Shown one piece after another: positions 13,233 to 20,493 of a stretch of 27,530 bases of DNA; the stretch's first letter is position 1, and the number at the start of each line of letters is the position of its first letter. A program made the translations under genes and the position numbers. The stretch is from a virus (taxonomy: Duplodnaviria; Caudoviricetes). Location: the IMG/VR virus record IMGVR_UViG_3300011440_000050, positions 1 through 27,530 of that record; one strand, given 5' to 3'. A model generated the notes under the pieces. It made no database searches. It had not been told where the DNA came from and worked only from the letters and a program-made list of their open reading frames with translations.

Positions 13233-13762
13233 GCGAACTCCTGATCGGTGCCGGCTCCTGTCGTGAGAAACTGATCGGCGTTCGCGACGGGCTCGTCTAC
13301 ATCTACCCGAGCGAGAACATGCCGCCGTGGCTACGCCTCACCACACTCGACAACAACGCCGACCACGCTCCGGATGTGCTCGCCGATCTGCGCGAGGCGC
13401 TCCCCTTCTCCGATGAGTGCTTCGACGAAATCCACGCCTACGAAGTGCTGGAGCATGTCGGGCAGCAGGGCGACTACATCGAGTTCTTCCGACTCTTCGG
13501 CGAGCTATGGCGCATACTCAAGCCGGGCGGACTCCTCCTCGCGAAGTGCCCGAGCTGGCGGGGCATGTGGGCCTGGGGCGACCCCTCGCATACGCGGGTG
13601 ATCTCGTCGGGCACACTGACCTTCCTCGACCAGCGTGAGTACGAGAAGCAGGTGGGCAAGACTCCGATGAGCGACTTTCGTGGTATCTGGAAACGCTCAT
13701 TCGAGACGATGTTCACGCAGGAAGATGGAGACACGCACTACTTCATTCTGAGGAAAGCATGA
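13229..13762 (+). CDS. class I SAM-dependent methyltransferase (type 11-like)
   Basis: LLIGAG, FDEIHAYEVLEHV, WRILKPGG, AWGDPSHTR. Confidence 0.88.
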   Translation: MSELLIGAGSCREKLIGVRDGLVYIYPSENMPPWLRLTTLDNNADHAPDVLADLREALPFSDECFDEIHAYEVLEHVGQQGDYIEFFRLFGELWRILKPGGLLLAKCPSWRGMWAWGDPSHTRVISSGTLTFLDQREYEKQVGKTPMSDFRGIWKRSFETMFTQEDGDTHYFILRKA

Positions 13763-14601
13763 TTCAGCTTCAGCTCGAAACCATCGGCGGCATATGCAAC
13801 GCCGCGTGCCACTTCTGCCTCCTGCAAGATCGCAAGTACTACGCGAACCAGGGCGTGCCCACGGGCACGATGAGCATGGACCTGTACCGCAAGATCATCG
13901 ACGAGGCGGTGGGCATACCTGAAATCTCACGGCTGACGCTCACGGGGTTGAGTGAGACGCTCCTCGACAATCAGCTTGAGGAGCGGATCGCATACGCGCG
14001 CCAAAAGCAGGCATCGTCTGCAGCGTACGCCTCCATCTGGCCCATCGACATCTACACGAACGGGCTTGCGCTCCGTCCTGATCGCTTCGACTCGCTCAAG
14101 GCAGCGGGGCTGACCGGTCTCAGCGTGTCACTCAACGCCGTGCGACCCGAGCAGCACACCGCCATCATGGGAATTAGGGCTTACGAACACATATGCCGAA
14201 ATATCGACTACGCCATCATCACGGGTGGCGTACACGTCGAAGTGAAGGCCGTGGTGAACGGGGACGCCTTCACGACGAAGGACGCGGAGCAGTTCAACTC
14301 TCGCTGGCATCCGTATGCTGTGTGTGTCCATGAGGGCAATTGGGCCGGGGACAACCGCACCTTGCGGGCCTTCGACCCGAAGGAGCCCTGCCACCGTGCC
14401 ATCGGCCAGCTTTACGTGACCTGGGAGGGCCGGGTGGGCATGTGCTGCTTCGACCCGCTTGCCAAAGCGAACTTTGGAGACCTCCGCACGCAGAGCATCA
14501 AAGAGGTGTACAATGCGCAGAGGTACGCGGACTTCCGCCAGGACCACGCGGAGGGCCGGGCTGACGCGCACGCCGTATGCGCCAAATGCACGCGTATCTG
14601 A
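13759..14601 (+). CDS. radical SAM protein with SPASM/Twitch-like domain
   Basis: CNAACHFC (CX3CX2C), YTNG, C-terminal PC...YVTWEGRVGMCCFD...CAKC. Confidence 0.92.
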   Translation: MIQLQLETIGGICNAACHFCLLQDRKYYANQGVPTGTMSMDLYRKIIDEAVGIPEISRLTLTGLSETLLDNQLEERIAYARQKQASSAAYASIWPIDIYTNGLALRPDRFDSLKAAGLTGLSVSLNAVRPEQHTAIMGIRAYEHICRNIDYAIITGGVHVEVKAVVNGDAFTTKDAEQFNSRWHPYAVCVHEGNWAGDNRTLRAFDPKEPCHRAIGQLYVTWEGRVGMCCFDPLAKANFGDLRTQSIKEVYNAQRYADFRQDHAEGRADAHAVCAKCTRI

Positions 14602-14614
14602 GGAGGGTAGAGTC

Positions 14615-14722
14615 ATGCTTGAGCTGATCATGTTCCTTGTCACCATGGCCGTCCTACACATCTGGGGCTGGAAGGGGGCCCTCATCGCTGCATGGTGCGC
14701 AGCGCTCATTCTGCGGGACTGA
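14615..14722 (+). CDS. 35-aa hydrophobic peptide
   Basis: GAGGAGG RBS; MLELIMFLVTMAVLHIWGWKGALIAAWCAALILRD; ends just before terminator. Confidence 0.65.
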   Translation: MLELIMFLVTMAVLHIWGWKGALIAAWCAALILRD

Positions 14723-14729
14723 CGTACCG

Positions 14730-14757
14730 GCCCCCCTCCTCGGGGGGCTTTTTTTTT
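14730..14757 (+). terminator. intrinsic terminator
   Basis: GCCCCCC-tcctc-GGGGGGC stem followed by T9. Confidence 0.92.
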
Positions 14758-14775
14758 GTCTAACGCACTTTCCTC

Positions 14776-14804
14776 TTGACGCATTCGCATTTCCATGTTA
14801 CAAT
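14776..14804 (+). promoter_or_regulatory. sigma70 promoter upstream of putative ncRNA
   Basis: TTGACG (14776-14781), 17 nt spacer, TGt-TACAAT (14799-14804). Confidence 0.8.
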
Positions 14805-14810
14805 GGTTGC

Positions 14811-15043
14811 GTGAGGTGGGGACAACCCCCATCTGTCACGGGGTTTCACCGGGTTACTTGTGACCTTGCTCCTGTCCATACGGTAAGAGGCGGGCAGCAT
14901 GCAGCTTCGGGTTGGCGGTTCTTCCTCTTACCGGAGGACGGACAAGCACAACCCGTCTTGCATTCTGCAGTCGGCTAACGAGTAGCAATTAGTGGGGAGT
15001 GGGGGAGCTACAACCGATATGGAAACGCGGAACATGACACCAC
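14811..15043 (+). ncRNA. putative structured non-coding RNA of unrecognised family
   Basis: Own promoter; nested stems incl. perfect 10-bp CGGTAAGAGG/CCTCTTACCG within a ~106-nt rod (14850-14955), 5' hairpin, and long-range closing pairs. Confidence 0.6.
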
Positions 15044-15068
15044 AAAATAGCGTTAGGTGCGATTTCGC

Positions 15069-15098
15069 TTGACTTTGCGAATGCACATGTGGTACACT
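15069..15098 (+). promoter_or_regulatory. sigma70 promoter for replication cluster
   Basis: TTGACT (15069-15074), 18 nt spacer, TGg-TACACT (15093-15098). Confidence 0.7.
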
Positions 15099-15139
15099 GT
15101 ACCTATCATGAGCGCTGGACGCTCAGAGGAGGAAAGTAG

Positions 15140-15871
15140 ATGTCGCTCTTCAATCCTAAGAACGCGCGCGTCGGCGGCAAGCTCGTGGACAACGTCGATG
15201 CCGATGTGACGTTCGAGACGGTGCTGTACGACTATAACGGGACCGTCGCGGTTCCCGTCCCCGCGATTCACCTGCACGGCGTCGTCACTGCCTCGCAGGA
15301 TGAGTCGCTCCACGCCATCGGCTCGGAGTTCGACGAGTACTACTCCGCGGGCAAGGCCGAGGAGTTCGCGCCCACCGGGAAGTACTTCACGATCCGCAAG
15401 GAAGGCGCCCGCCTGTCCGATCAGAGCAAGGCCATGGCCTTGTTCGTCGCGCTGCAGAACTCGGGAATCCCTGAGGAGACGTTTGACGCTGAGGACGTGA
15501 CCCTGTTCAACGGCAACTACAGCTTGACCCGCAAGCGGGAGACGCGGGAGTTCAAGAACAGGGCCGGGCAGAAGGAGACGAAGGAGTCGTCCATCCTGCT
15601 TCCTACCGCCGTCAATGAAGGCGTCAAGAAGGTGAAGAACAACGCGAAGGCGTACAACGGTGCGGCCAAGGACCGTGCCACTTCGATCGTGTCCGCGATC
15701 ATCGCCGAGAAGGGCGTTGTCCCTTCTAGCCAGTTGGGCGCGATGGTCTTCAATAAGGTGTCGAAGGACAAGGACGCCCAGGCCATCGTCAAGGCGGCTA
15801 TCGATCAGTCGTTCCTGGCCGCGGGCCCCTGGCAGTTCGAGAACGGAGTGCTTTCGTCGACGAACACGTAA
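15140..15871 (+). CDS. hypothetical protein, possibly ssDNA-binding
   Basis: GAGGAGG RBS, first gene after promoter, beta-rich aromatic N-half; function inferred from position only. Confidence 0.6.
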   Translation: MSLFNPKNARVGGKLVDNVDADVTFETVLYDYNGTVAVPVPAIHLHGVVTASQDESLHAIGSEFDEYYSAGKAEEFAPTGKYFTIRKEGARLSDQSKAMALFVALQNSGIPEETFDAEDVTLFNGNYSLTRKRETREFKNRAGQKETKESSILLPTAVNEGVKKVKNNAKAYNGAAKDRATSIVSAIIAEKGVVPSSQLGAMVFNKVSKDKDAQAIVKAAIDQSFLAAGPWQFENGVLSSTNT

Positions 15872-15873
15872 CA

Positions 15874-15933
15874 GGCCGAAACGGCGGGTAACGTAACCGC
15901 CGTCCGCGTGTTAGGCACGCGCTGAAGAGGGCC
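15874..15933 (+). ncRNA. type II hammerhead ribozyme (copy 1)
   Basis: GGCC-GAAA, stem III ACGGCGG/CCGCCGT, GUC site (cut after 15904), stem I CGCGTG/CACGCG, CTGAAGA core, one extra G, then GGCC. Confidence 0.88.
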
Positions 15934-15935
15934 AA

Positions 15936-16211
15936 ATGTTGAAGTCGATGAAAACGCTGTGGTTGAAAGCTCTCCGTAGCGGAAAGTACAAACAGGGAAC
16001 GGGGACCTTGGAAACCACAGACGGTAAATACTGCTGTCTCGGAGTCCTCACGAAGATCGACGGGGGAGAGTGTGAGCACCACCACTACCTTGACCCGGAT
16101 AGAGCAAAACGATTGCGTCTGCCGGGGCAAGTACAGCAAGACCTTGCTCAGATGAATGACAGGCGGGTCTCGTTCAGGGCGATCGCCAACTACATCGAGA
16201 AGAACCTGTGA
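15936..16211 (+). CDS. conserved phage hypothetical protein
   Basis: WLKALRSGKYKQGTGTL...CCLGVL...ND...FRAIANYIE pattern recalled from many phage hypotheticals. Confidence 0.8.
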   Translation: MLKSMKTLWLKALRSGKYKQGTGTLETTDGKYCCLGVLTKIDGGECEHHHYLDPDRAKRLRLPGQVQQDLAQMNDRRVSFRAIANYIEKNL

Positions 16212-16663
16212 AGACGCTTAAGCCCGTAGAGAAACGAATCGAGTGGTTTGGTGTGCGTATAGAAGCCCTACGTGAACGTGCTGAAGCCGCCGAGGCCGAA
16301 GTGGGGCGGCTCCGAGCCAAGAACGTTGATCTGGGGGGTGGGCAAGGCTTCAGCGATCTGCTTGCCGACTACAACGACAGGCTCAACGACATCAAGGCTC
16401 TCCGGGCCAAGCTCGCGGCGGCACCGGAGGACCTGACGCGAAACGACGCCTACGAGCTTCAGGGCATCCTCCGAACGCTCACACCCTCCGGCACGGCCCT
16501 GAAGACTTCGGCGCGAGAGCTTGTGCGTAAGTGGGAGGAGCAGAATGCAAAGCTCGCGCTCGCGGACAAGGTCGTAGCGGCTGTGTGGAACAGCAAGGCG
16601 TGCGTGCGGCTGAAGTCTATCCGCGCCGCACTCGATGCCTACCGAAAGGGCGATGCAAAATGA
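16208..16663 (+). CDS. coiled-coil hypothetical protein (Ead/Ea22-like style)
   Basis: GTGA-coupled; RAEAAEAEVGRLRA heptads. Confidence 0.7.
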   Translation: MKTLKPVEKRIEWFGVRIEALRERAEAAEAEVGRLRAKNVDLGGGQGFSDLLADYNDRLNDIKALRAKLAAAPEDLTRNDAYELQGILRTLTPSGTALKTSARELVRKWEEQNAKLALADKVVAAVWNSKACVRLKSIRAALDAYRKGDAK

Positions 16664-17151
16664 GCAGCAGCAAACCGACACCGCAGGACATCGAGCGGGC
16701 GTGGAAGTACCTCAGCGGGCGCATCTGCGGCACACACGTTCATGGGAGCATTGAAGGGCTCGCCACCGAGTTCGCCGCCGTCAAGGAGGAGACGCAGCGG
16801 GAGCGGGATGTCTGGTGGGGCAAGACTCTCTGCCCCGATGTCTCTCCCGTGCAGCTTGATCCCGAAGTACACCGGGAGGCCGCCATCGCTACCGCCGAGT
16901 GCAACGAAGCCCGCGTCCGCCAGCTTGAGACCGACCTGGAGAATGCGCGAGAAGACCTCGCCATCATGCAAGCCGACCTTGAGCGAACCCAAAACGCCGA
17001 GGCCGAGGTGGAGCGGCTGCGCGCTGTCGTGGATGATCGGGATCTCAGAATCGTCTCGGCGAGGGGCCGGATCTGCGAAGCCGAAGCCGACCTCGCGGCC
17101 CTGAAGGAGCGGAACGAACGGTTGGTGGAAGTGGCGGCAGAAGACGCGTAG
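16660..17151 (+). CDS. coiled-coil hypothetical protein (Ead/Ea22-like style)
   Basis: ATGA-coupled start 16660; NAEAEVERLRA heptads; stop overlaps the first base of hammerhead 2. Confidence 0.7.
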   Translation: MSSSKPTPQDIERAWKYLSGRICGTHVHGSIEGLATEFAAVKEETQRERDVWWGKTLCPDVSPVQLDPEVHREAAIATAECNEARVRQLETDLENAREDLAIMQADLERTQNAEAEVERLRAVVDDRDLRIVSARGRICEAEADLAALKERNERLVEVAAEDA

Positions 17152-17210
17152 GCCGAAACGGCGGGGGTTTACCACTGCTGTCCGCGAGTCAGGCTCGCGC
17201 TGAGGAGGCC
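17151..17210 (+). ncRNA. type II hammerhead ribozyme (copy 2)
   Basis: GGCC-GAAA, stem III ACGGCGG/CTGCTGT, GUC site (cut after 17182), stem I CGCGAG/CTCGCG, CTGAGGA core, GGCC. Confidence 0.92.
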
Positions 17211-17212
17211 AG

Positions 17213-17341
17213 ATGGCGAAGGCGGAGAAGGGTAACGCGGGCAAGTGTTACGACCACACATACCGCGGCCCCCGTTTCGACAAGCCGATCGTGCTACGGG
17301 ACGCCTCAGGCAAGCCGCTCTACACGGCGGACAAGAAGTGA
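17213..17341 (+). CDS. 42-aa basic protein (MAKAEKGNAGKCYDHTY...)
   Basis: GAGGAGG RBS within hammerhead 2; GTGA-coupled to next ORF; below ORF-track cutoff. Confidence 0.65.
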   Translation: MAKAEKGNAGKCYDHTYRGPRFDKPIVLRDASGKPLYTADKK

Positions 17342-17526
17342 GCCGCAACCGCGTCGGAGCGGACACGGTCGAGTACCACATGTATCCGGACAGCCACTTG
17401 TTCTCGACGCACGAAACGCGGGAGCGCGCACGGCGCTGCCCCATGTGCCAGAACTGCGTGGCCGTCGCCCACGACGCCGCTATCCAAGAGGACGCGAACC
17501 GCTGCGGCGCGTTCTCCATCCTGTGA
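17338..17526 (+). CDS. small hypothetical protein with CPMC motif
   Basis: GTGA overlap start; fills the gap before the lipoprotein. Confidence 0.55.
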   Translation: MSRNRVGADTVEYHMYPDSHLFSTHETRERARRCPMCQNCVAVAHDAAIQEDANRCGAFSIL

Positions 17527-17537
17527 TCGGAGGAGAA

Positions 17538-18332
17538 GTGAAGAAAGCCGTACTCGTTGCGCTGCTCTGCGGAGCGTGTGCTCAGGACTTGAACGTACTG
17601 CCTACCACGCCCGAGGCGACGCCTGTGCCCGTGAGCACGCCGGCCCCTGCGACGCCGCCGCCGGCAGAGGGCGGCTCGGATACGCCGTCGTACTACGGCG
17701 GCATCCGGCAGGACAACTCCGGGTGGGTCGTGAACAACACGGACCGGGTGCAGACCGTGAGCCTCTGCTCCTACAACGCGACCGGGCCGCAGCAGCTCGT
17801 GGACTCGCATACGCAGGACGCGGCTCGGGGGATTCAGGCCGACTTCCGCGCCCTGGCCGTCCCGGCTGCGTCGTGCGGGAAGACGACGCGCGTGCAGATC
17901 GACCTCGTCCCCGGCACATGCCGCGCGGACGGGCTCTATGGGAACTCTGCGATCAAGTACCGGGTGTATTTCCTGCCCGGGCCGGCGTGCCCAGTGCCGA
18001 CGCCTACGCCGAGCCCGACACCCACCCCTTCCTGCGACCAACAGAATCCGCCTAGCTTCAAGCTAGGGGCTTTGTCCTGGGACGGGCGTGGGCCGGTGTC
18101 GGGTGCTGCGGCGGTGAGCAACGCGGGCACCTGGAAGCTCATTCTGCGGGCGACGAATCCCGGCAACTTCCAGAAGGCCGTGGACACGAAGACCGTCTAC
18201 TGCGGGAAGTCCGCGACGCTCCTCGTGTCGTATCCCTGGGCCGGGCACTCCTCGGAAGACTGGCGTCTCGAACTCTACCGGGACGGCTCACTCGTCGCCA
18301 CGAGCCCTGTCGTCAAGAACCCGGTCAACTGA
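17538..18332 (+). CDS. putative lipoprotein with Pro/Thr-rich linkers
   Basis: GGAGGAG RBS; MKKAVLVALLCGAC lipobox-like signal; PTPTPSPTPTP linker between beta-rich domains. Confidence 0.75.
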   Translation: MKKAVLVALLCGACAQDLNVLPTTPEATPVPVSTPAPATPPPAEGGSDTPSYYGGIRQDNSGWVVNNTDRVQTVSLCSYNATGPQQLVDSHTQDAARGIQADFRALAVPAASCGKTTRVQIDLVPGTCRADGLYGNSAIKYRVYFLPGPACPVPTPTPSPTPTPSCDQQNPPSFKLGALSWDGRGPVSGAAAVSNAGTWKLILRATNPGNFQKAVDTKTVYCGKSATLLVSYPWAGHSSEDWRLELYRDGSLVATSPVVKNPVN

Positions 18333-18958
18333 TGAAGATCGAAGCCGTCCCTTTCACGCTGTCGCCCGAGGATCTGATCCCTGACCAAATCCTCTATCCG
18401 CCGCAGCCACGAAGAGTCGACTTGCCACACCTTTCGCCGATCCTACGGGACTTGGAACGGGTCACGGGTCGAGCGAAGAGATACGGCGACGATTTGACCC
18501 CTGAGGACCGGAATCGTCGCCGTGCGTATTTCGAGATGGGCTTCGCGTGGGAGATGTGCATGGAGGCTGCGTTCAAGATGCGGCAGATGCACGGCTTCAG
18601 CGCGAGCATGATCCGGCAACCAGAGATCGAGCACAAGGGCATCCTCAGCACGGGCGACCTGCTCGACACCGAGGACTGGCGTTACGTCGAGTTGAAGTTC
18701 ACGACGCGCAGTTCCCGTCACGTCGAGGAACTCGAAGAGAACTTCTGGGTGTGGTTCCAACAGATGCGGTGGAATTGCGCCGCGTGGCAGACGAACAAGG
18801 CCGCGCTCTTCGTGCTCTTCGGTTGCGGTAACTACAAGCCACCGACGCCGGACGCACGGGGTTGGAGGATCGAATTCAGCGACGGGGAGATCGCGGACAC
18901 AGAAACGATGGTCACGAATCACAGGGACCGCATGTCCCGGGAGGGGAGATTGCGATGA
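18332..18958 (+). CDS. PD-(D/E)XK exonuclease (RecB/Cas4-like)
   Basis: GFAWE, STGDLLD, VELKFT, WFQQM motifs. Confidence 0.75.
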   Translation: MKIEAVPFTLSPEDLIPDQILYPPQPRRVDLPHLSPILRDLERVTGRAKRYGDDLTPEDRNRRRAYFEMGFAWEMCMEAAFKMRQMHGFSASMIRQPEIEHKGILSTGDLLDTEDWRYVELKFTTRSSRHVEELEENFWVWFQQMRWNCAAWQTNKAALFVLFGCGNYKPPTPDARGWRIEFSDGEIADTETMVTNHRDRMSREGRLR

Positions 18959-19377
18959 GGGTTTCATTCGAGGGTGAGCTGGACGACGTTTTCAAGATGG
19001 TTTGTGAGGCTTACTACGAGGCTAAGGGGGATATGTTTTCTCAAGCGGACGGTTACTCGGGGCCGATCGATGTGCCGGCCGGTGATCAGGGCGGCGTCAA
19101 GTTTGGGCCGCAAGGTTCCGTGATCGTCAATGGCCTTCTCAGGGACGTGGCACAGCCCGTCATTGGCGAAATCGAGGGCGACGAGCCTGAGGAACTACTC
19201 ACGGCTATCGCCGGCTTCCTGTGCCGACTCAGCCAAGCGACGGGGCGAAGTATCGATGATGTTGAAGTCGCGCTGGATAAGGACAGAACGCGCTTCGAGC
19301 TGGTCGTTGTCTTGGGTGAGGGCTTCAACACCGACATTGCCGACGCGATCACGTCTGATCTGCTGGAAGTTGTATGA
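18955..19377 (+). CDS. acidic hypothetical protein
   Basis: ATGA-coupled both ends; 140 aa. Confidence 0.7.
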   Translation: MRVSFEGELDDVFKMVCEAYYEAKGDMFSQADGYSGPIDVPAGDQGGVKFGPQGSVIVNGLLRDVAQPVIGEIEGDEPEELLTAIAGFLCRLSQATGRSIDDVEVALDKDRTRFELVVVLGEGFNTDIADAITSDLLEVV

Positions 19378-19583
19378 CAAGCATCTTCGGGACGGTCAGC
19401 AGCGTCCGCGCACGGTTGCAGTCGCGTCGTGGCCTTTCGAAGCGAGAACTCTATCGGCTCGTGCAGGACGTGCTCATGCGTGAGCAGATTGCGCTGAAGC
19501 GGCTAGCGGGCGCTATGAAGCGGCTGGAAGAGCTGGAACCGCCCACCACGGCGGCGGATCCGGTACAGGAGGTTGAGGGATGA
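19374..19583 (+). CDS. hypothetical protein
   Basis: ATGA-coupled both ends. Confidence 0.65.
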   Translation: MTSIFGTVSSVRARLQSRRGLSKRELYRLVQDVLMREQIALKRLAGAMKRLEELEPPTTAADPVQEVEG

Positions 19584-19756
19584 AGAAGAAGCAGATGTTT
19601 GGGATTCGGTGCTCTGACGGGAGCCGCTGTTTTCGCTTCACACTGTTCCGCAGCCGCGAGACGGCGAAAGCCCGACTTGCTGCGGCGAAAAAGCGAGCGT
19701 TGAAGTCGCCCTGTCCGAAAGAGTTCGAGGGACACCGCGTGGTGATCGCTCAATGA
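19580..19756 (+). CDS. 58-aa basic hypothetical protein (MKKKQMFGIRCSD...)
   Basis: GGAGG RBS; ATGA-coupled both ends; below ORF-track cutoff. Confidence 0.6.
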   Translation: MKKKQMFGIRCSDGSRCFRFTLFRSRETAKARLAAAKKRALKSPCPKEFEGHRVVIAQ

Positions 19757-20493
19757 GCACGCCCGCGGCGAACCTCGGCTTCGAGCGGCCTCGGCGCACG
19801 CGTCAGCGTCGTCAGTGTTGGCTCGGGGCCGGCAAGACGAAGACGGGCAAGACGCGCTTCGGCCTGACATTCCCTGGGCCGATCGCCGTCCTCAGCTTCG
19901 ACCGGGCCATCGAGGACGTGCTCCACGAAGTGCCCGGAGCCGACGTAGTCGTGAAGGACTTCACGCGCTCCTTCAAGCTCGGCGAGCCTATGACGCAAGC
20001 GCAGGCACAAGCGGTCGAGGCCGAGTTTGCGAAGGCGTACCTCGGCGCTCTGGAGCACAAGGACATCCGCACCGTGATGATCGACAAGGGCACAACCTTG
20101 TGGGAGATCATGCGCTACGCCGAGTGGGGCAAGATCGACCACGTCAAGGCGCACCATTACGTAGGCGTGAACTCGCGTATGCGCCGCTACCTCCTCGCCT
20201 TTCAGGACTCCACGAAGAACGTCTATATCGTGGACGACGTGAAAGAGGAGTGGGACGACAACGGCAAGCCGACTGGTCAATTCAAGCGTGAGGGCTTCAA
20301 GCATACGCCGGGTCTCGTGCAGGTCTGCGCGAGCTTTGAGCGAGTAGAGAAGGGCAAGGACTTCTTCATGACTCTCGAAGAGTGCGCGCTCAACTCGTCG
20401 CTCATCGGCTGGAAGTTCGAGGGGCCAGAGATCGATTTCCGCCAAATCGCCGGTATGGTCATGACGGATAGCGTTGCAGAGGACTGGAAATGA
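19753..20493 (+). CDS. AAA_24/Sak4-like P-loop ATPase
   Basis: GKTKTGKT Walker A, TVMID Walker B; near a PD-(D/E)XK exonuclease as in phage recombination modules. Confidence 0.75.
   Translation: MSTPAANLGFERPRRTRQRRQCWLGAGKTKTGKTRFGLTFPGPIAVLSFDRAIEDVLHEVPGADVVVKDFTRSFKLGEPMTQAQAQAVEAEFAKAYLGALEHKDIRTVMIDKGTTLWEIMRYAEWGKIDHVKAHHYVGVNSRMRRYLLAFQDSTKNVYIVDDVKEEWDDNGKPTGQFKREGFKHTPGLVQVCASFERVEKGKDFFMTLEECALNSSLIGWKFEGPEIDFRQIAGMVMTDSVAEDWK

Follow-up and report, generated by a model that had tools for sequence, protein, structure and literature searches.

The window analysed here, the whole 27.5-kb stretch of a virus record with a G+C content of 61.8%, derives from a temperate, uncultured phage and carries annotated genes for a helicase, a Sak4-like protein, a DNA polymerase and an integrase. 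A close cultured relative of the phage was not found, the best polymerase identities being 22–35%. A 45-kb record (G001) is of the same phage and differs from the window over positions 14000–20000 by 16 bases and two small indels. By consensus match only, a sigma-70-like promoter with a TG extension precedes the operon studied here (15069..15098, + strand), and a second sigma-70-like candidate (14776–14804, + strand) follows a terminator at 14729–14749; four promoter-like matches were found against 2.2 expected in shuffles. Downstream of both sites lies a run of + strand genes with a single weak + strand terminator candidate (19611). The run opens with a 243-aa gene of no family found (15140..15871), followed by a 91-aa phage protein (15936..16211; phrog_18067, with PF26948 recorded for its homologues), two overlapping genes of 151 and 163 aa that are coiled-coil-like and have no family found (16208..17151), and a 42-aa ORF (17213..17341) coupled through GTGA to a 62-aa ORF at 17338–17526. 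Homologues of the 42-codon ORF were not found beyond its own cluster. RNA data gave one run with 6% of words, which yielded a single 261-nt contig (15118–15378) away from both ribozymes described below; the start of the 243-aa gene lies inside this contig, a weak signal from one run.

Two type II hammerhead ribozyme motifs occupy intergenic gaps of this early/replication operon. They had been proposed by the first-pass annotation, and both were confirmed, with stops, stems, GAAA, cores and ATGs all located in the sequence. The shared layout runs GGCC, GAAA, stem III, GUC, stem I (6 bp, closed by 5 loop nucleotides), CUGANGA and GGCC, and in MFE folds both copies take the type II permutation, with stem II open and loops closing stems I and III. 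The core positions of both (C3 U4 G5 A6 N7 G8 A9, G12 A13 A14 A15 and U16 H17) match the hammerhead consensus given by Perreault et al. (2011, PMC3088659).

Copy 2 (17150–17210, + strand; 65 bits and E 1.2e-15 with the custom model described below) begins within the upstream stop TAG (17149–51), whose G opens stem II. It comprises A(-5) at 17150, stem II (17151–54 with GGCC at 17207–10), GAAA (17155–58), stem III (17159–81), a predicted cut at 17182/17183, stem I (17183–99, with U1.7 at 17189) and the core CUGAGGA (17200–06). Beside the core (10.1–11.1, 1.1–2.1 and 15.1–16.1) there is no mispair or insertion. G5 to G10.2 of the ribozyme read GAGGAGG, a strong Shine-Dalgarno (SD) sequence that is followed after a 4-nt spacer by ATG 17213–15 (whole element 17202..17215, + strand).

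Copy 1 (15873–15933, + strand; 60.8 bits, E 1.7e-14) follows the stop TAA (15869–71), which begins 9 nt before its GAAA (15878–81). A(-5) lies at 15873, stem III at 15882–15903, the GUC with its predicted cut at 15904/15905, stem I at 15905–21 (U1.7 at 15911) and the core CUGAAGA at 15922–28. The 5' strand of stem II (GGCC, 15874–77) faces GGGCC at 15929–33, with one extra G that is either inserted after A9, as preferred in 2D folding, or bulged from stem II. The fold is predicted to be stable, yet the stem II register is shifted by one base. A weak SD, GAAGAGGG, lies inside core and stem II ahead of ATG 15936–38 (15924..15938, + strand). The extra-G variant is, in the viral collection, confined to this phage, and copy 1, a weaker and unique variant, may cut slowly. 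In G001, three differences fall in the ribozymes; two of them alter loops and one turns a G-C pair into G-U, and the fold is kept. The TAACA of copy 1 (15869–15873), which contains the stop, is complementary to TGTTA at 15909–15913 on the border of stem I and loop I; this complementarity is not conserved as Watson-Crick pairing in relatives. A Watson-Crick pseudoknot between 5' flank and loop I was also considered and rejected, as the relatives show no consistent pairing at (-6, loop 2) and (-7, loop 3).

Rfam scans of the window gave no hammerhead match, including none to RF02276 (Hammerhead_II; gathering score 37 bits), and blastn with the ribozymes returned only chance pieces. A custom model, built from 40 relatives with this phage excluded, gave significant E values at exactly these two sites in the window and in the longer record, and further copies were not found in either. 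Across the 40 relatives, 98.3% of cells are paired, 12 of the 16 pairs show two-sided changes, and the covariation score was reached by none of 500 shuffles, although the search pattern left stem II little freedom to vary, which makes its own covariation weak evidence. Two positions outside the core are nearly invariant and present in both copies, namely A(-5), five bases before GAAA (173 of 177 relatives), and U1.7, seven bases past the cut (140 of 141). Since the position of U1.7 matches that of a described trans-Hoogsteen contact (PMC9217987), fast cutting is plausible.

The relatives that use the core as SD (see below) fall short of RF02276, the eight tested scoring at most 32.7 bits, whereas pseudoknot-type relatives mostly pass it. 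This pseudoknot subtype (L147, L154, L197, L203, L217, L226, L227 and L239) has a 3-bp stem II and a tail that pairs with loop I. The window copies lie outside it, because neither of their loop I sequences, UUAGG and UCAGG, finds a 4-bp partner immediately 3' of stem II, and U1.7 and A(-5) are conserved instead. The pseudoknot subtype seldom uses the core as SD; among N7=G cases, 2 of 10 with a short stem II do so, against 57 of 80 with at least 4 bp.

Every such ribozyme ends in GAGG, so that asking whether the core serves as a ribosome binding site required a comparison across relatives. Pattern scans covered viral stretches (at least 129, 57 and 89), metagenomes (at least 119) and genomes (60). 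Filtering by structure and excluding six loci of this phage left 332 distinct motifs among the matches listed, of which 319 had enough downstream DNA; these fell into 233 clusters, based on similarity in flank DNA and protein, and were reduced to 249 representatives by cluster and N7, relatedness being handled by clustering alone. A near ATG was one opening at least 30 codons and lying 4–10 nt after A9. With G at N7, where the core reads GAGGAGG, a near ATG was present in 59 of 90 representatives, as against 6 of 92 with C or U (p 6e-18); the other bases separately gave 4/67 (A), 1/41 (C) and 5/51 (U). The spacing of the ATG peaks at 6–10 nt after A9. The effect holds when one random locus is drawn per cluster (maximum p 3e-14) and in the N7-unbiased scan alone (5/5 with G, 6/125 with C/U), where N7=G is a small minority (5 of 137 motifs). 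A separate SD was present in 9 of the 59 N7=G loci with a near ATG, compared with 100 of 149 non-G loci with a distant one. Because the ATG is tied in spacing to the core and a separate SD is mostly absent, we suggest that the core acts as ribosome binding site when N7 is G. By these sequence statistics the overlap of core and SD is beyond chance, and the layout recurs at dozens of unrelated phage loci. The same SD word outside ribozymes is followed by an ATG in 12 of 28 cases (p 0.046 against 59/90), and the core GAGGAGG behaves as an ordinary SD word does.

We define the core-SD subtype as N7=G with an ATG 4–10 nt after A9 and no separate SD. Copy 2, with N7=G and its ATG at +6, is a typical member, and its computed anti-SD pairing (-12.1 kcal/mol) is level with the strongest starts listed for the phage. 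Copy 1 (-6.3 kcal/mol) has N7=A plus the extra G, with its ATG at +7, and falls outside the enriched subtype. Its start codon is nevertheless the true one, as the 91-aa protein carries a conserved Trp at residue 9, the position it also takes in 85 of 117 homologues (120 examined, motif found in 117), and no other SD was found between the copy 1 core and ATG 15936. The proposal that core and stem II 3' strand double as the ribosome binding site of the next gene is thus borne out by the comparative statistics; its extension to both copies holds fully for copy 2, and for copy 1 as a weak SD outside the enriched subtype.

Several observations were made alongside these counts. In the window, the word CTGAGGA also precedes starts outside the ribozymes, at 14598–14604, where its TGA is the upstream stop, and at 13748–13754. 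A scan allowing other stem II sequences, kept out of the main counts, yielded 15 motifs with structure, spread over 11 of 71 loci, and 5 of the 11 had N7=G with a near ATG. Pattern matches lacking hammerhead structure (near ATG in 50 of 100) were dropped as a null since at many of these sites a type I-like hammerhead precedes a stand-alone SD. Such type I-like arrays (L463, L470, L473, L479, L496, L509, L514 and others) match RF00163, mostly below the gathering score, and continue into an A-rich linker and a stand-alone CUGAGGAG SD in a small hairpin, with an ATG near in 48 of 53. The CUGAGGAG SD resembles a second core strand, which suggests a route to the core-SD type II form by permutation. 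Elsewhere (L009, L010 and L011 on one contig, L020 and L479), four to eight near-identical hammerheads lie 270–600 nt apart around short genes, and such arrays could additionally act as repeats at which recombination shuffles genes. In genome bins of bacteria from several phyla (L399–L458), 60 loci gave 12 structured motifs, two of them in one Syntrophorhabdus contig (L435, L436); these are likely prophage regions.

The relatives with C or U at N7 carry a different feature. In 24 of these 92 representatives, a pentamer 3–10 nt after A9 is complementary to the first five bases of the locus's own core (among them L004, L005, L013, L020, L033, L051, L057, L074 and L255). With relatedness again handled by clustering, the tail covaries with N7, being GUCAG with C (13/41) and AUCAG with U (11/51), with 24 matched and none mismatched; one N7=A case has UUCAG, and CUCAG occurs in none of the 90 N7=G representatives. 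A hairpin of core and tail is predicted in 24 of 24 cut products and, at equilibrium, in most full precursors, and none of the 24 has a near ATG. Judged from sequence, the core strand, once freed, seems to meet one of two fates, serving as SD or being sequestered. In the window copies, a search for an anti-core tail gave at most 3 bp, and this candidate was rejected.

As annotated at first pass, the upstream stop abuts or overlaps the 5' strand of stem II in both copies. Among representatives with enough upstream DNA, and counting stops that close at least 60 open codons, the stop begins 5–10 nt before GAAA in 148 of 229, compared with 6 of 175 at a control point shifted by 100 nt, and few long frames run into or end within the ribozyme. 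The invariant A(-5) eases the forming of the stop triplets TAG, TAA and TGA. The abutment is genuine, yet it is a trait of the whole family and somewhat less tight in the core-SD subtype (26/53 against 122/176 of the others, p 0.009; within 20 nt, 44/53 against 150/176). We therefore see no sign of joint design that would couple cleavage to both neighbouring genes, as had been suggested. As to the related idea that a ribosome terminating upstream disrupts folding, the upstream sequence of copy 2 is itself predicted to compete with the ribozyme fold, so that such a ribosome could aid as well as disrupt its folding.

We next consider whether cutting would expose the ribosome site. The cost of opening this site was calculated over the ensemble with ViennaRNA, which ignores tertiary contacts, so that masking may be underestimated. 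Of the seven bases of GAGGAGG, the ribozyme fold engages just the final two G in Watson-Crick pairs. Over the 59 relatives the median gain in access on cutting is 0.6 kcal/mol; the shift is positive (Wilcoxon p 0.03), with gains of at least 10-fold (at least 1.4 kcal/mol) in 16, at least 100-fold in 5 and zero or negative in 17. With flanks included, the pair probability of stem II exceeds 0.5 in just 19 of the 59 precursors. For the window copies the computed gain depends on flank length, from -0.2 to 12.5 kcal/mol (copy 1) and from -0.3 to 3.6 kcal/mol (copy 2). When copy 2 is folded length by length, stem II holds (0.97–1.0) until about 17221 and then yields to rival folds, being predicted lost once 12–15 more bases are made, and 20 nt of upstream sequence erode it sooner; by this model, cutting of copy 2 may be partial. 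The earlier view that the fold hides the SD and cutting releases it is not supported as a strong switch, and the folding calculations lend only weak weight to cleavage switching translation on. Sequence and hammerhead chemistry (PMC6765202) do agree with the accompanying prediction that cutting would leave a 5'-OH 3' product capped by a blunt stem I hairpin. Expression from an engineered twister construct was reduced by a hairpin remaining immediately ahead of the SD (PMC5052635), the position that stem I would keep in the window copies.

Taken together, we somewhat favour constitutive processing with a built-in ribosome binding site, in which the type II hammerheads cut the early transcript and the catalytic strand becomes the next ribosome binding site. 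The ribozymes would cut the long transcript soon after synthesis and need no trigger, giving three pieces: the 243-aa gene; three small genes, of which the 91-aa gene is the first past cut 1; and the 42-aa gene, the first past cut 2, onward to the replication genes. At its 3' end, an upstream piece would carry the stem III hairpin and a cyclic phosphate. A downstream piece would start with a 5'-OH and the blunt stem I hairpin and reach SD and AUG within 30–31 nt, compared with a family median leader of 32 nt (range 28–38, n=47). The pieces could so gain their own stability and initiation rate. Before cutting, the SD is predicted to be just lightly masked; since the active fold and 30S pairing at the SD exclude each other, ribosome loading and cutting would be in brief competition. 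N7 is the one free core position, and a G at this position extends the obligatory GAGG to a full SD and spares a separate site; other family members keep a separate SD instead, with the core often hidden in a hairpin. Clustered prophage hammerheads have been found to cut in vitro and in E. coli (PMC3088659).

An extension we regard as possible, and hold only tentatively, makes the family translation-coupled devices, in which the freed strand is SD (N7=G) or locked by the tail (N7=C/U), and in which, for the N7=G subtype, loading, termination and cleavage gate one another as a ligand-free switch timing or staggering early genes. Cleavage-gated translation as first proposed, with the fold masking the SD and the downstream gene translated chiefly once cutting has taken place, or for a short time while a ribosome terminating upstream melts stem II, seems to us unlikely. 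SD and core are the same bases, which makes active fold and 30S pairing mutually exclusive, the cut products would be held by the 4 bp of stem II alone, gains reach 1.4 kcal/mol or more in 16 of the 59 relatives and, with some flanks, 3.6 (copy 2) and 12.5 kcal/mol (copy 1), and engineered SD-sequestering ribozymes give 5- to 100-fold activation (PMC5052635). However, those designs bury the whole SD in a stem where here two bases are paired, the median gain is small, 17 of 59 relatives gain nothing or lose and only 19 of the 59 precursors keep stem II above 0.5, and with no sensing domain visible the gate would open constitutively.

The reverse dependence, in which folding, and hence the fraction processed, is set by a 30S on the core or by a ribosome at the upstream stop, strikes us as a little less likely still. 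Pairing of SD and anti-SD in copy 2 rivals its 4-bp stem II, this copy has a narrow predicted folding window and a competing upstream sequence, and stops 5–10 nt before GAAA, where few long frames enter the ribozyme, lie within reach of a terminating ribosome's footprint. Termination is, however, brief relative to mRNA life, and the abutment is looser in precisely the core-SD subtype and explicable by compact packing and an invariant A completing the stop. It is improbable, finally, that the overlap is incidental, whether the SD likeness is a useless product of the GAGG ending and compact genomes or the motifs are inactive relics and repeats alone. GAGG is forced by G8-A9-G10.1-G10.2, CUGAGGAG is a common stand-alone SD with an ATG after 12 of 28 background sites, and an ATG follows 48 of 53 CUGAGGAG sites mostly downstream of type I-like hammerheads. 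Against this, GAGG alone attracts no ATG (10 of 159 with A, C or U at N7, against 59 of 90 with G), a separate SD is mostly absent where N7=G and an ATG is near, and the cores are intact and the stems covary.

Processing of this kind has a protein-dependent parallel. In phage T7, RNase III processing hairpins between early genes cut the polycistronic early transcript and leave protective hairpin ends; these need the host enzyme, leave a 5'-phosphate and have a separate ribosome binding site. The hammerheads resemble them as intergenic structures that would cut an early transcript into hairpin-ended pieces. Type II hammerheads clustered between prophage and phage genes are themselves known (Perreault et al. 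2011, PMC3088659; Rfam RF02276), and processing of long phage transcripts was proposed there. The window copies share with them the open stem II, the order GAAA, stem III, UH, stem I and CUGANGA, the intact core, and the flanking of single genes or short gene blocks by several copies; unlike the majority form, they have a 4-bp stem II, conserved U1.7 and A(-5), and no loop I pseudoknot to a 3' tail. The terms 'Shine' and 'ribosome binding' are absent from the main text of that paper, supplements aside. Two natural precedents share the making of an mRNA 5' end near a start codon, the HHphage of haloviruses HF1/HF2 (PMC3088659) and hammerheads of RNA viruses that lie directly upstream of start codons (bioRxiv 10.1101/2024.05.16.594327); the latter are type I motifs in eukaryotic viruses, and in the parts of these sources consulted a core acting as SD is not reported for either. 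A further likeness is to hammerhead and twister switches engineered in E. coli to sequester an SD (described in Felletti et al. 2016, PMC5052635), where the SD also lies inside the ribozyme fold and is freed by self-cleavage, as it would be in the window copies. Those switches, however, bury the SD in a designed stem and put cutting under the control of an aptamer, whereas here the SD is the catalytic core itself, with two bases paired and no sensor visible. Compared with glmS-like or engineered aptazyme switches more generally, there is likewise no visible sensor, and the computed access gain is small and flank-dependent. A literature search that took in few subscription papers found no description of a natural hammerhead core used as SD. 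While type II phage hammerheads were already known, the core-SD overlap appears to be new, as may be the covarying anti-core tail of the C/U copies.

The role of bacterial and phage self-cleaving ribozymes has been called largely unknown, with mRNA processing suggested (PMC6765202). In the core-SD subtype, where the next start codon lies can be predicted from the only free base of the core, which links these ribozymes to the initiation of translation. This offers a one-base test, as changing N7 from G to C or U would keep catalysis and remove the SD. The motif could also provide a natural cutter-plus-ribosome-binding-site part of 60 nt. If cutting does gate translation, these ribozymes would be the natural counterpart of the engineered SD-sequestering ones.
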